Below, one piece after another: positions 27,151-32,000 of a DNA stretch of 32,000 nt. The notes under the pieces are model-generated. The model did no database searches, was not told the DNA's origin, and saw nothing but the letters and a program-made list of their open reading frames with translations. Made by a program: the position numbers and the translations under genes. Origin of the DNA: Candidatus Nitrospira inopinata (GTDB taxonomy: Bacteria; Nitrospirota; Nitrospiria; Nitrospirales; Nitrospiraceae). The stretch is from the NCBI RefSeq assembly GCF_001458695.1, contig NZ_LN885086.1:2760001-2792000 (forward strand), in the 5' to 3' direction. The stretch's first letter is position 1. The number at the start of each line of letters is the position of its first letter.

Positions 27151-27773
27151 TTCGCCCAACATCCATGAACTACGACCCCGAAAAGCATCATCGCCGCAGC
27201 ATCCGCCTGAAGGAATACGATTATTCCCAGCCGGGGGCATATTTCATCACCATCTGCACACAGGATCGGGCGTGCCTGTTCGGCGAGGTGGTGGATGGGG
27301 AAATGCGGGTAAATGATGCAGGGCGCATGATCCAATCGGTGTGGGACGAAATGTCGGCGTTCTATTCCGGCATTGATGCCGACGAATTCGTTGTCATGCC
27401 CAATCACATCCACGGGATCATTGTCCTTGTAGGGGCGACCCCCTGTGGTCGCCCCGAATCGGGGCAGGCACAGGGGCAGGCACGGGGGCCTGCCCCTACC
27501 CTCTCGGTACCGGCTGCGGTTCACCGGTTCAAAACCCTCACCACGAAACGATATACCGATGGGATAAAACAATCCGGATGGCCGCCGTTTCGCGGTCGGT
27601 TGTGGCAACGCAACTATTACGAACACATCATCCGCAATGACGAATCCCTGAACCGCATACGCGAATACATCACAAACAACCCGTCGCAATGGTCGTTGGA
27701 CCGCGAGAACCCGAATTTCGTAGGGGCACGGCATGCCGTGCCCCTACCAAAAGATGAACCATGGCGCGCCTGA
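27147..27773 (+). CDS. REP-associated tyrosine transposase (RAYT, IS200/Y1 HUH family)
   Basis: Contains [25 protein letters not shown], the HUH motif PNHIHGII, and the Tyr region [27 protein letters not shown]. An alternative start lies at 27165 (MNYDPEKHH). The 3' end reads through a REP hairpin. Confidence 0.85.
27429..27499 (+). repeat. Inverted pair of GTAG-headed REP-like hairpins inside the RAYT ORF
   Basis: First hairpin: GTAG then GGGGCGACC-CCCTGT-GGTCGCCCC (27429-27455). Second, opposite orientation: AGGGGCAGGC-ACGGGG-GCCTGCCCCT then AC (27472-27499). Together they encode [24 protein letters not shown]. Confidence 0.75.
27719..27746. repeat. Perfect 28-bp GTAG-headed palindrome (REP-like) at the RAYT 3' end
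   Basis: GTAGGGGCACGGCATGCCGTGCCCCTAC. Confidence 0.8.
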
Positions 27774-27885
27774 CCGAATCCGACGTTGAATCCGCCGCCC
27801 TCGCCTGGCTGGAGGCCATAGGGTGGTCCGCCGCCCACGGGCCGGACATCGCGCCGGATATGCCCGCGGCCGAGCGGGCCGATCA
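27761..27885 (+). pseudogene. Relic hsdR 5' end, copy 1
   Basis: [42 protein letters not shown] matches the HsdR N-terminus at 30551. Similarity is lost after about 27885. Confidence 0.75.
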
Positions 27886-27991
27886 CGAAGACAGGCGGGA
27901 CGCACCGAGCGGTCGACGTGAACTTGCGAGCAGCCGCGCTGCAAACTCGCGTTCGGCCAAGACCACGAGGAGCATTCAGCCGGCGTGTGGC

Positions 27992-28083
27992 TTGCAGCCA
28001 GCCGATGGACAACCTTGCAATCCGCCGATCCATAAGGTTGCACTTAGCCGACAGCAAACCTTACAATCAGCCGATGCCAGACC
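27992..28083 (+). repeat. Four 23-bp-phased iteron-like repeats (TTGCA-N4-GCCGA)
   Basis: Units start at 27992, 28015, 28038 and 28061: TTGCAGCCAGCCGAT, TTGCAATCCGCCGAT, TTGCACTTAGCCGAC, TTACAATCAGCCGAT. Units 3 and 4 also supply TTGCAC, an 18-nt spacer and TACAAT, 6 nt before the ATG at 28074. Confidence 0.7.
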
Positions 28084-29321: not shown

Positions 29322-29578
29322 CCAGGCCCTTCATGGAGTCGGACGTCGAGCAGGCCGCCCTGGCCTGGCTGAAAACCAGCGGGTGGCCCGTCGCGCACGG
29401 GCCGGACATATCGCCTTCCGGCAATACCCTCACCCTAGCCCTCTCCCAGCGGGAGAGGGAACATTACGGCGAGGTGGTGCTGGCGCAGCGGCTGCGCGAC
29501 GCGCTGCCGCCCACGCTTGTCTCTGGTAAACTGCGAGCGACGGAGGCCATAAACGTTCCGGAGGCACAGCGGTTGTGA
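29318..29578 (+). pseudogene. Chimeric relic: hsdR 5' end (copy 2) fused to an hsdS-type C-terminal tail
   Basis: [35 protein letters not shown]...[16 protein letters not shown] is HsdR-like. It then reads [14 protein letters not shown], compared with the HsdS tail [18 protein letters not shown] overlap with the ATPase stop and GTGA overlap with the next gene. Confidence 0.7.
29396..29505 (+). repeat. Direct repeat A (~110 nt), partner at 30626-30735
   Basis: Hand alignment at an offset of 1230 nt gives 5 mismatches in about 110 nt. Includes the CCCTCTCCC-AGC-GGGAGAGGG hairpin at 29439-29459. Confidence 0.85.
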
Positions 29579-30480
29579 AGCCTGTTTCCGCAATCGTCAT
29601 TTACGAAGGCGAAAATGCCCGCGTCGAGGTGCGCATCGAGCATGACAACGTCTGGCTGAACCTGCAACAGGTGGCGGACCTGTTCGGTCGCGACAAGTCG
29701 GTGATCTCGCGGCATCTGAAAAACATCTTCGACACCAAGGAGTTGGAGCGCGACTCAGTTGTTGCAAAAAATGCAACAACTGCCGCCGATGGCAAGACCT
29801 ACCTCGTCGATTACTACAACCTCGACGCCATCATTTCGGTAGGGTACCGGGTCAACTCCACCCGTGCCACCCGCTTTCGCCAATGGGCCACGCGCGTGCT
29901 GCGTGAGCATCTGACAAAGGGATACACGCTCAACCGTCAGCGCTTCGAGCAAAACGCTCGGGAACTGGAAGCCACACTGGCGCTGGTGCGCAAGGCCGCA
30001 GCCGGCGAGGTGTTGACGACCGATCAAGGGCGCGGGCTGGTGGATATTATCGCCCGCTACACACAGACCTTCCTCCTGCTGCAGCACTATGACGAGGGGC
30101 TGCTCGCCGAGCCGAAGGGCGTGCCCGGTGGCGTGTTGCCAACGGCACAGGTGGCGCGCGCCGCGATCGCGCGGCTCAAGGCCGAACTCATCCAGCGCGG
30201 CGAGGCGAGCGAACTGTTCGGCCGCGAGCGGGACAACGGGCTTACCGCGCTACTCGGGAATCTGGACCAGACGGTGCTCGGCGCACCCGCGTACCCGACC
30301 ATCGAATCGAAAGCGGCGCACCTTCTGTATTTCGTGATCAAGGACCACCCGTTTGTCGATGGCAACAAACGCATCGGCTCGTTCTTGTTCGTCGAATTTC
30401 TGGACCGCAACGGCCGCCTCTTCCGCGACGGCGAACCGGTGATCACGACATGGGGCTGGCGGCGCTCGCGCTGCTGGTAG
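29575..30480 (+). CDS. RhuM-family N-terminal domain fused to a Fic/Doc domain; 3' frameshift
   Basis: The RhuM-like N-terminus is [27 protein letters not shown]...[25 protein letters not shown]. The Doc-type Fic motif is [11 protein letters not shown]. After about 30447 the adjacent frame reads [33 protein letters not shown] and ends at 30548. Confidence 0.8.
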
Positions 30481-30550
30481 CGGAGTCCGCCCCCAAGGAC
30501 AAGGAGATAATGATCCGCCTCGTGATGAACATGCTCGCGGAGTCGTAGCC

Positions 30551-32000
30551 GTGACCGCTTTCACCGAATCCACTGTCGAAGCAGCCGCCCTCGGCTGGCT
30601 TGAGAGCATCGGCTGGCGGATCGCCCACGGCCCGGACATATCGCCTTCCGGCGATACCCTCACCCTAGCCCTCTCCCAGCGGGAGAGGGAACATTACGGC
30701 GAGGTGGTCCTTGCCCAGCGGCTGCGCGACGCGCTCGCCCGGCTCAACCCCACGTTTCCCGCCGAGGCGCTGGAAGACGCGTTCCGCAAGCTCACTCGGC
30801 CCGAAGGCGCGGACCTGCTCCAGCGCAACCGCGCGCTGCACCGGCTGCTGGTGAACGGCGTGACCGTCGAGTACCGCACGGCAGGGGGCGAGGTCCGCGG
30901 CGCGCAGGCGCGGGTCATCGACTTCGACACCCCAGACAACAACCACTGGCTGGCGGTGAACCAGTTCTCGGTCGTGGAAAACAGGCACTCGCGCCGGCCT
31001 GACGTGGTGCTCTTCGTCAACGGCCTGCCGCTCGCGGTGATCGAGCTTAAGAACCCGGCCGACGAGGACGCCACCATCTGGAGCGCCTTTCAGCAGCTCC
31101 AGACCTACCAGGCTGAGATTCCCTCGCTCTTCGCGATGAACGGCGTGCTGGTCGTCTCCGACGGCGTCGAGGCGCGCGTGGGCGCGCTCGGCTCCGGGCG
31201 GGAGTGGTTCAAGCCCTGGCGCACCATCACGGGGGCGGACTTTTATCCTTCTCCGTCACCCTCACCCCGGCCTGACGTCCACCCCTCTCCCAGTGGGAGA
31301 GGGGACGGGGGTGAGGGATTCCGGCTTTTGCCGGAATTGCAGGTCGTGATCGAAGGCATCTTCGCCAAGCGGCGTTTCCTCGACCTGGTGCGCGACTTCA
31401 TCGTCTTCGAGGACGACGGCAGCGGACGGCTCGCCAAGAAAATGGCCGGCTACCACCAGTTCCACGCGGTGCAGGTGGCGGTGAGGGAGACGCTGCGCGC
31501 TGCGGAGCTGGCGCGCGCGGATCACGTGGCCGAGGAAACCGGGCGCTATGAGGCAGGGCGCAAACCCGGCGGCAAGCCCGGTGACCGCCGCGTGGGAGTG
31601 GTCTGGCATACCCAGGGCTCGGGCAAGAGCCTGACCATGGCCTTTTACGCCGGACGCATCATCCGCGAGCCGGCGATGGAAAATCCGACAATCGTGGTAC
31701 TCACCGACCGCAACGACCTCGACGACCAGCTTTTCGGCACCTTCTCGCGCTGCCAGGACCTCCTGTGCCAGCCGCCGGTGCAGGCGGAAAGCCGAAAGCA
31801 TCTGCGCGAGCTGCTGTCAGTGGCGGCCGGCGGCGTGGTGTTTACCACCATTCAGAAATTTTTGCCCGACGTAGGGGCGGACCAACGTGTCCGCCCAACA
31901 GAAGGGCAGGCACAAAGGCATGCTACGTTATCGAACCGGCGCAACATCGTGGTGATCGCCGACGAGGCGCACCGCAGCCAGTACGACTTCATCGACGGCT
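30551..32000 (+). CDS. hsdR: Type I restriction enzyme R subunit HsdR (3'-partial, runs off the window)
   Basis: Hand translation from GTG 30551 (GGAG 8 nt upstream) shows no stop up to 32000. The N-terminus is [19 protein letters not shown]. It has a PD-(D/E)xK nuclease region ([18 protein letters not shown]), Walker A TQGSGKS and motif [12 protein letters not shown]. It is absent from the ORF track because it is open-ended. Confidence 0.92.
30626..30735 (+). repeat. Direct repeat B (partner of 29396-29505)
   Basis: See repeat A. Contains the hairpin at 30669-30689 and encodes [36 protein letters not shown]. Confidence 0.85.
31259..31337 (+). repeat. Nested palindromic element (full copy 2) plus adjacent hairpin, in frame inside hsdR
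   Basis: Outer arms CCCTCACCC (31259-31267) / GGGTGAGGG (31309-31317) enclose CCCCTCTCCC-AGT-GGGAGAGGGG. ATTCCGGC-TTTT-GCCGGAAT follows at 31318-31337. Together they encode [28 protein letters not shown]. Confidence 0.8.
31871..31926 (+). repeat. GTAG-headed REP-like doublet (degenerate second half), in frame inside hsdR
   Basis: GTAG then GGGCGGAC-CAACGT-GTCCGCCC, followed by GGGCAGGCAC...GCTAC. It encodes [19 protein letters not shown] just before the DEAH box and has the same architecture as 27429-27499. Confidence 0.65.

Follow-up and report, generated by a model that had tools for sequence, protein, structure and literature searches.

The DNA analysed here, a window of 32,000 nt from Candidatus Nitrospira inopinata (GCF_001458695.1, contig NZ_LN885086.1, positions 2,760,001-2,792,000 of the forward strand), carries between 23.6 and 32 kb a single same-strand type I restriction-modification (R-M) operon, hsdM-hsdS-hsdR, with four inserted cargo units: a DUF4258/MqsA-like toxin-antitoxin (TA) pair, a gene resembling a transposase associated with repetitive extragenic palindromes (REP-associated tyrosine transposase, RAYT), a DUF4143 ATPase and a frameshifted RhuM-Fic gene. 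A leftover end of an hsd gene bounds each of the four units, and one of these scars is an 86-aa open reading frame (ORF) in which the 5' end of hsdR (the head) is joined to the 3' end of hsdS (the tail). Such chimeras recur in dozens of unrelated bacteria and, judged from sequence comparison, appear to form a class of recombination scars that is widespread, has apparently not been described before and arises by known processes rather than from a new kind of system. The scars were probably left by a modular accretion of embedded cassettes, driven by homology and microhomology and followed by gene conversion between the heads.

The heads were located with a profile of the HsdR N-terminus built from other genomes, which matched the window at 27770-27892 (E 6.5e-16, profile positions 2-42), 29330-29506 (E 9.4e-17, positions 2-53) and 30560-30787 (E 4.6e-25, full profile); of the three, only the third runs on into HSDR_N and SWI2/SNF2 domains. 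An earlier note on this DNA had placed HsdR N-terminal modules at 27761, 29318 and 30551, the last alone being full-length, and both the profile matches and the Pfam domains agree with it. Copy 1 is 76% identical to copies 2 and 3 over 83 nt. The 12-mer CTGCGCGACGCG, reported in the same note at 27061, 29492 and 30722, was counted exactly three times in the whole window, at these positions (0.05 occurrences expected; three reached in 0 of 100 shuffles). The hsdS 3' and hsdR 5' ends have no more than one stretch in common, 12-15 nt long (CTGCGCGACGCG[CT]; 14-15 nt in the related locus L100), in the same frame and coding for LRDAL; the most frequent chimera joint falls on it. From the 12-mer onwards, positions 29492-29547 are 73% identical to the hsdS 3' end (27061-27116), in register and in frame. 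A profile of the HsdS C-terminal tail was built without the sequence of the window and searched against 27,939 ORFs; it matched the tail of the copy-2 ORF with an E value of 0.033 among these ORFs (p of about 1e-6 for a single ORF), the Nitrospira orthologue in L047 with 2.8e-4 and the chimera in L028 with 3.7e-3. The earlier note had let copy 2 switch after RLRDAL into an HsdS C-terminal tail and had made this claim depend on a profile match; the match was obtained, and the DNA identity and relatives with clear HsdS tails point the same way.

These relatives, found by a protein search with the 86-aa ORF, are regarded as the decisive evidence for a real hsdR-5'/hsdS-3' chimera. The search returned small proteins in which the HsdR head extends to RLRDAL and is followed by an unmistakable HsdS tail (P0003, P0007), the orthologue P0002, and the further relatives P0008, P0009, P0022 and P0044. 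No family in Pfam, NCBIfam or PADLOC matched the 86-aa chimera itself. With a profile made from eight chimeras, 1.84 billion cluster representatives (clusters at 50% identity) were searched; about 42 of the best 150 representatives were 70-95 aa long and had a head as well as a tail match, mostly joined at RLRDAL/LPKLISGE. A minority were joined elsewhere (P0150 after GPDIAPD, P0181 and P0205 after RLNP), so the chimeras would not all go back to one event.

In every context that was read among the finds of the protein search, the chimera separates two different cassettes embedded in a type I locus, with start/stop overlaps of 1-4 nt. The chimera is preceded by SIR2 and DUF87 genes in L100 and L120, and is followed in L100 by a 321-aa gene and then by head remnants, DUF4143 and hsdR, and in L120 by a RAYT gene. 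In L104 it stands between KwaAB (Kiwa) with Abi_C and AAA_13 followed by hsdR, in L107 between AAA_15 and KwaAB (Kiwa) with DarTG, and in L114 between AbiJ and AAA_21 with DUF4276, after which come a DUF4143 fragment, a head remnant, RhuM-Fic and hsdR. L117 is rich in scars, with two hsdM-tail remnants, one chimera, an hsdS-tail remnant before AAA_13 (a tail-AAA_13-head unit) and two further head remnants. The uniformity of these contexts suggests that the cassettes travel as tail-cargo-head units. No recombinase gene common to the chimera-bearing loci was found in the gene tables, and no integrase was found in the window or in related loci. DUF4143 ATPases were seen repeatedly as the last cargo before hsdR (L100, L107, L114, L119).

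A survey of homologous rhuM loci, which the earlier note had proposed, was carried out on 80 genomes with RhuM-Fic relatives, and the head remnant 5' of rhuM was found again. Seven loci (L028, L029, L034, L038, L041, L048 and L086) have a head remnant 5' and a full hsdR 3' of rhuM; L038 has two head remnants and a full hsdR, that is, three modules as in the window. In L047, a contig without hsdR, the chimera lies directly 5' of rhuM. The break points of the head remnants fall at profile positions 32-55. Compared with the resident gene ends, heads are 62-89% and tails 70-76% identical; because they have diverged from the resident copies, the scars are not fresh tandem duplications, and their divergence fits a foreign origin but old duplications as well. 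As a separate observation, L066 (5980-7871) contains two different rhuM paralogues in tandem with an hsdR head remnant between them, the stop codon of which overlaps the start of the second rhuM; such a product is what one would expect if two loci with rhuM had undergone an unequal exchange.

The scars are not confined to hsdR and hsdS. The TA pair has the resident hsdM 3' end on one side and a second, diverged hsdM 3' remnant on the other, and the ATG of the toxin gene (25282) sits, relative to the hsdM 3' end, exactly where the ATG of hsdS would sit in a native hsdM-hsdS overlap. The remnant is 81-84% identical to the hsdM 3' ends of L100-L103 and L090, and has counterparts in L117 (1250-1537 and 2626-2766) and L041. 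From these comparisons it is interpreted as the right-side scar of the TA cassette, a mirror image of the hsdR remnants; it was missing from the features listed in the earlier note.

Relatives with empty sites were found among the Nitrospiraceae. L119, a metagenome-assembled genome (MAG) of this family, contains a head remnant, a DUF4143 ATPase gene and hsdR joined by a GTGA overlap, and has no tail-RhuM-Fic-head block of 1230 nt: its positions 8298-9744 are colinear with 28061-29510 of the window (78%), across ATPase and hsdR sequence, and then continue as the window does from 30548 onward. L047, a Nitrospira MAG with 93-97% identity in the shared parts, passes from the RAYT gene directly to the chimera and rhuM, and lacks the ATPase and the rest of copy 1; its single head is a patchwork of the window copies 1, 2 and 3. 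From L119 and L047 it follows that relatives may have or lack each cassette independently of the others, the end points falling within the head repeats, and the heads, to judge from the patchwork, exchange sequence. The L047 locus is scrambled at 1516-4277 and 6555-7358: about 2.7 kb of unrelated DNA replaces the 5' part of hsdM, hsdS is cut to 34 nt, and the contig ends with a truncated rhuM followed by an hsdM 5' segment. Either genuine decay or an assembly problem at low coverage would account for this.

Copies 2 and 3 contain direct repeats (29396-29505 and 30626-30735) that differ at only five of 110 positions (29401, 29423, 29479, 29482 and 29485) and have exact runs of 21, 55 and 20 nt. 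Over the 66 nt 5' of the repeats the identity is only about 64-65%, which makes a sharp step. The spacing of 1230 nt equals 3x410, and the recombinant hsdR made in silico has an intact frame starting at the ATGA overlap with the ATPase gene. The five mismatches that the earlier note had counted by hand, and the deletion it derived from them (loss of RhuM-Fic, leaving ATPase-ATGA-hsdR), were thus correct as geometry, and L119 has an uninterrupted ATPase-hsdR arrangement. In the same way its modules, chimera and 12-mer stood. One correction concerns RhuM-Fic, which is not an intact gene. A deletion of 1 nt near 30447 (ATCAACGAC to ATCACGAC) ends the ORF after 301 aa at 30480 and displaces the conserved last 32 residues into another frame, which runs to a TAG at 30546-30548. 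Because exactly this 301-aa product recurs in more than 20 samples, the frameshift is not a sequencing error; it is fixed across public assemblies of N. inopinata. The Fic motif of the gene, HPFVDGNKR, belongs to the Doc type (match to TIGR01550 at 3.8e-08, below cut-off).

Deletion variants were looked for in 23-24 contigs with neighbouring genes, obtained by exact-protein look-ups for the RAYT, RhuM-Fic and ATPase products; none was found, the contigs showing the full arrangement or ending at the repeat, where short-read unitigs (k ~31) cannot bridge the exact run of 55 nt. Metagenome contigs searched with a copy-2 32-mer and with a degenerate junction pattern gave 0 matches each, a result that is uninformative, since L104, a JGI contig that matches the pattern, is evidently absent from the collection. 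RecA-dependent exchange between repeats of about 50-110 nt is rare, the minimal efficient processing segment being about 25 nt; since perfect identity spans 55 nt, exchange between the repeats of the window is expected to be rare. In 14 other pairs of remnant and head, 13 are 62-85% identical and the pair in L119 is 89% identical, and none has an identity step. The step is present in the window only, so the 95% tract would be a local gene conversion or crossover point and not part of a general design; a mosaic identity step as a general prediction for portable cassettes was rejected on the same ground.

Sequence comparison establishes that the scars are homologous to hsd gene ends, where their junctions lie, that they recur in other loci, and that relatives with empty sites and mosaic heads exist; the recombination pathway, the order of events and the coupling role of the scars are inferred as follows. 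All of the scars (three hsdR heads, one chimera, one hsdM-tail remnant) would date from a one-by-one addition of cargo inside a type I operon. In this gene family the genes of the operon overlap (ATGA/GTGA) and leave no intergenic room; therefore an insertion that spares the upstream gene must land in the next hsd gene, where the incoming DNA would supply a replacement end and a stub would remain. Each cassette would come from another type I locus, where it would have been situated at the hsdS-hsdR or the hsdM-hsdS junction, and would have moved together with the flanking hsd stub. An out-of-register exchange at LRDAL between an hsdR head, lying 3' of cargo A, and an hsdS tail, lying 5' of cargo B, would give hsdS-A-head/tail-B-hsdR. 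Two sets of cargo could be joined in frame in this way because the hsdS 3' and hsdR 5' ends both encode LRDAL with the same 12-15 nt. The resulting head/tail-cargo-head block, flanked by two head repeats, could enter related loci through two head crossovers and could be lost likewise. Possible pathways are homology-facilitated illegitimate recombination (an hsdR or hsdM anchor and a microhomology joint), unequal crossover between cargo-bearing loci, and double crossover. In the window, the RhuM-Fic block would occupy what is otherwise an ATPase-hsdR junction, and the rise in identity from about 65% to 95% near 29396 would mark either a point of crossover or a tract in which the heads later underwent gene conversion. 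A simple linear double crossover into one resident head was rejected as a common source of the duplication and the 95% tract, as the left joint is at position 185, to the right of the apparent crossover at about 75; with the joint 3' of the identity step, either the donor already had two heads or gene conversion took place later. Most scar ORFs are open up to the next start codon and keep start/stop overlaps of 1-4 nt, which probably preserves translational coupling along the operon. As the LRDAL joint is in frame by construction, the openness of the chimeras is not proof of selection.

Several points weigh against accretion as set out here. All of the evidence is comparative, and recombination is deduced rather than directly observed. 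Protein databases hold intact ORFs only, which biases the impression that chimeras are kept open. L047 is a weak witness, since its MAG contig has low coverage and the locus is scrambled in other respects. The first 75 nt of the L119 hsdR are closer to copy 3 of the window than to copy 2; an insertion of RhuM-Fic into a resident ATPase-hsdR arrangement therefore needs an extra crossover, and the ATPase and RhuM-Fic units may have been added in either order. The shared LRDAL site could also reflect one ancient chimera spread by transfer instead of a recurrent hotspot. A further-reaching reading, which we put forward only tentatively, is that the LRDAL microhomology serves as a recombinase-free docking site and that this family of type I operons acts as an integron-like collector of defence cassettes. 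Head/tail-cargo-head blocks would then excise as circles or move as linear DNA and enter related hsdR genes via head crossovers, and selection would keep the chimeric ORFs of 75-90 aa open, since they would relay translational coupling and polarity protection to the cargo and to hsdR.

Four other explanations were weighed against cassette accretion. The repeats might belong to a programmed, phase-variable switch that excises and re-inserts RhuM-Fic and so gives on and off subpopulations. Their identity (105/110, with the exact run of 55 nt), the spacing in whole codons and the intact recombinant hsdR would suit such a switch, as would the presence and absence of the cassette, with end points in the head repeats, between the Nitrospiraceae relatives L119 and L047. 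We nevertheless consider it improbable: no contig with the flanking genes showed a deletion variant, the cargo is already frameshifted in all samples, a recombinase is lacking, and the high identity is no conserved design feature, the other pairs being less similar and that of L119 reaching 89% with no step. The high identity looks like the result of local conversion or crossover rather than of a designed switch. Slightly less credible still is the proposal that the chimera of 75-90 aa has a function of its own as a small protein; combining the HsdR N-terminal segment with the HsdM-contacting C-terminal helix of HsdS, it might, for instance, modulate R-M assembly. Numerous unrelated taxa have intact ORFs that are closely alike in length and architecture, and their start and stop codons are always coupled; yet the sequences look degraded at positions that are near-invariant in real heads and tails (e.g. 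LLLRLLSGDRRARG), the window and L047 orthologues differ, past the converted patch, by four non-synonymous changes to one synonymous change, broken and out-of-frame versions occur (L041; L117 12280-12464), and the lack of a Pfam, NCBIfam or PADLOC family speaks against it as well.

A RAYT-like gene separates hsdS from copy 1 and carries a perfect palindrome at its 3' end, a hairpin element lies inside both 110-nt repeats, and RAYT genes are present in L026, L038, L047 and L120; this could suggest that the duplications were made by the Y1 transposase and the hairpin elements. This is very unlikely in our estimate, as chimeras with the same joint occur without the hairpin insert (P0007-P0009, P0022, P0044) and in loci free of RAYT (L104, L107, L114), the junction lies at the LRDAL 12-mer and not at the hairpin, and the RAYT gene itself contains an insert that interrupts it in frame and does not reach the family cut-off. 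An assembly artefact, in the form of a collapsed or duplicated repeat, which the earlier note had named among the outcomes that would undo its reading, can be dismissed almost entirely. Short-read unitigs do break exactly at the repeat; however, 14.85 kb are 100% identical in two independent long contigs (NCBI GCA_001458715.1, 443 kb; JGI 3300030317, 1.06 Mb), the chimeric ORF is annotated in Candidatus Nitrospira inopinata on a contig of 3.295 Mb, and the mismatches specific for each copy are retained.

Palindromic elements form a separate layer of the locus. A GC-rich nested hairpin, CCCTCACCC...CCCTCTCCC-NNN-GGGAGAGGG...GGGTGAGGG, is present in four copies in the window (24831-24926, 29427-29459, 30657-30689 and 31235-31329), all inside hsd coding sequence and in three different reading frames, the ORF never being broken. 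The copies in hsdM and hsdR have no counterpart in L119 or L026, and L119 and L120 bear copies elsewhere, in hsdS and in hsdR (about 9892-9945). The hairpin has the look of a mobile element whose in-frame presence R-M genes tolerate. Three copies of another type, which is REP-like (GTAGGGGC...GCCCCTAC, with GGGCAGGCAC repeats), were found. The copy at 27429-27499 is inserted in frame into the RAYT-like gene and divides its Y1 transposase domain; the one at 27720-27747 is a perfect 28-nt palindrome at the 3' end of the same gene, 14 nt before the ATG of copy 1; and the one at 31871-31930 is an in-frame insert within the motor domain of hsdR, immediately ahead of the DEAH motif. The hsdR gene thus contains in-frame element inserts at 30657-30689, about 31235-31329 and 31871-31930, and hsdR of L026 contains none. 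REP elements, RAYT transposases and in-frame palindromic elements such as the Rickettsia palindromic elements (RPEs) are a known class for comparison. The elements described here resemble it in being short, GC-rich, multi-copy hairpins, some of which lie in coding sequence without a frame break, and in the presence of a RAYT-like gene; they differ in that the hairpins do not coincide with the scar junctions.

The features of the operon are listed in Table 1. The locus was assigned as a type I system from its domains, namely methylase and N-terminal domains in HsdM, the two-stretch HsdS, and a nuclease region, SF2 motor and C-terminal domain in HsdR; in the source contig, the full HsdR of 1098 aa also has T1R_D3-like and T1RH-like_C domains. 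The in-frame inserts in hsdM and hsdR leave its activity putative. The RAYT-like gene matches NCBIfam REP_Tyr_transpos (NF047646) with an E value of 1e-15 and 57.9 bits against a cut-off of 80, its domain being split by the insert, and the tail-RAYT junction has a homologue in L120. Promoter- and terminator-like motifs occur in the R-M operon at chance level only, the remnants supplying no obvious promoters, and an Rfam scan of 23-32 kb matched no family. The G+C content is 63.7% in the R-M region (23500-32000) and 58.9% in positions 1-21000; the higher value is consistent with a horizontal origin from a donor of higher G+C content. A second AAA_14/DUF4143 ATPase gene lies directly 3' of hsdR (L001 16793-17926, about 1.9-3.1 kb past the window end).

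Table 1. Genes, remnants and repeats of the type I R-M operon in the window (positions 1-32,000).
Feature	Position	Strand	Evidence and remarks
hsdM (N6 DNA methylase subunit)	23619..25307	+	Pfam N6_Mtase 1.1e-104, HsdM_N 5.7e-29; in-frame hairpin-element insert at about 24831-24926, without counterpart in L119
Cargo unit 1: DUF4258 toxin (25282-25563) and YgiT/MqsA-like zinc-finger antitoxin (25566-25790)	25282..25790	+	Pfam DUF4258 7.3e-26, MqsA_antitoxin 6.8e-07; NCBIfam YgiT_finger 6.2e-13
hsdM 3' remnant, stop overlapping hsdS start	25798..25913	+	75% identity to 25199-25285
hsdS (specificity subunit)	25903..27150	+	Pfam Methylase_S, two stretches; HsdS-tail profile 6.6e-18; first 12-mer copy in C-terminal helix, 27061
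Cargo unit 2: IS200-like Y1/RAYT-like gene	27147..27773	+	Pfam Y1_Tnp 1.1e-06; ATGA overlap with hsdS stop
hsdR 5' remnant, copy 1, a canonical head broken after ...PAAERADH, no hairpin insert	27761..27892	+	Head profile 6.5e-16; ATG inside RAYT 3' end
Cargo unit 3: AAA_14/DUF4143 ATPase, PADLOC candidate PDC-S01	28005..29321	+	Pfam DUF4143 3.1e-45, AAA_14 4.7e-23; PADLOC 2.8e-164; stop overlaps copy-2 start (ATGA)
Chimeric ORF, 86 aa: hsdR head copy 2 (29318-29503) and hsdS 3' tail (29504-29578)	29318..29578	+	Joint at 12-mer 29492-29503; stop overlaps RhuM-Fic start (GTGA)
Left copy of 110-nt direct repeat	29396..29505	+	Contains hairpin element CCCTCACCC..CCCTCTCCCAGCGGGAGAGGG (29427-29459)
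Cargo unit 4: RhuM N-domain and Fic/Doc gene, PADLOC PDC-S23, frameshifted	29575..30548	+	Pfam Virulence_RhuM 4e-23, Fic 1.2e-12; PADLOC 1.2e-114
hsdR copy 3, full gene	30551..32000, running past window end	+	Pfam HSDR_N 7e-48, SWI2_SNF2 3.2e-43; 1098 aa in source contig
Right copy of 110-nt direct repeat	30626..30735	+	Ends with third 12-mer copy (30722-30733)

Defence genes embedded in type I R-M loci have been described before: PrrC in EcoprrI, TgvAB in VPI-2 of Vibrio cholerae, DarTG2 in enteropathogenic Escherichia coli (EPEC), and the 'guilt-by-embedding' candidates of PADLOC. The hsdS-hsdR gap has been termed a potential recombination hotspot (PMC12255303), and the preprint of Payne et al., which invokes the idea of a genomic sink, states that the significance of embedding 'remains to be explored'. 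The cargo of the window resembles these cases in lying on the same strand between hsdS and hsdR and between hsdM and hsdS. The ATPase and RhuM-Fic genes, both of which are situated between hsdS and hsdR, match the embedded PADLOC candidates PDC-S01 and PDC-S23, and the embedded cargo is probably anti-phage in its candidate role. The published accounts, however, give the arrangement and not its origin, whereas here hsd stubs bound the cassettes. No description of hsdR-head/hsdS-tail chimeras or of hsd stubs bounding cassettes was found in the literature searched, an absence within that literature that is not proof of novelty.

The closest mechanistic analogue, by comparison of the arrangements, appears to be sequential displacement in orphan arrays of type VI secretion systems (T6SS), Rhs and contact-dependent inhibition (CDI) systems; for T6SS and Rhs arrays it has been proposed to proceed by homology-facilitated illegitimate recombination, with a homologous anchor and an illegitimate join (PMC5361080). 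In both cases a conserved gene segment would act as the anchor, new modules come to lie beside old ones, partial copies of the anchor remain as scars, and the other end is joined at a microhomology. The window contains the corresponding anchor stubs (hsdM tail 25798-25913, hsdR heads at 27761 and 29318, hsdS tail 29504-29578) and the 12-mer microhomology at the joint. It differs from the orphan arrays in that the anchors are the ends of three different R-M subunit genes, the older cargo is retained intact and not orphaned, and the recurrent joint uses a coincidental in-frame microhomology between the hsdS 3' and hsdR 5' ends. Two further systems were considered and ruled out. Shufflons of hsdS and epigenetic invertons likewise have repeats inside a type I locus that can rearrange it, but they consist of inverted repeats in multiple hsdS genes and a site-specific recombinase that changes specificity; the locus described here has one hsdS, direct repeats in hsdR heads and no invertase. 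Integron arrays are similar in that tandem, promoterless cargo units point in one direction and each is bounded by a recurring sequence; here no integrase and no attC-like folded sites are present, and the boundaries are coding stubs with variable break points (profile positions 32-55).

For N. inopinata itself the consequence for the genome is modest, one cargo gene being already a pseudogene and no switching having been seen. The wider interest lies in the family. Defence genes nested in R-M, BREX and related operons are used for gene discovery, and their route of arrival has been stated to be unknown; for one large type I family, the scars would give an answer at the level of the sequence, namely that cassettes travel with hsd stubs. 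The coincidental microhomology between hsdS and hsdR would let two sets of cargo concatenate, and the head repeats would allow later gain, loss and gene conversion. If the docking-site reading were true, embedding would have a defined and predictable mechanism, and the scars would date and trace the exchange of cassettes. As markers of cassette boundaries, the scars may also sharpen the discovery of embedded systems.

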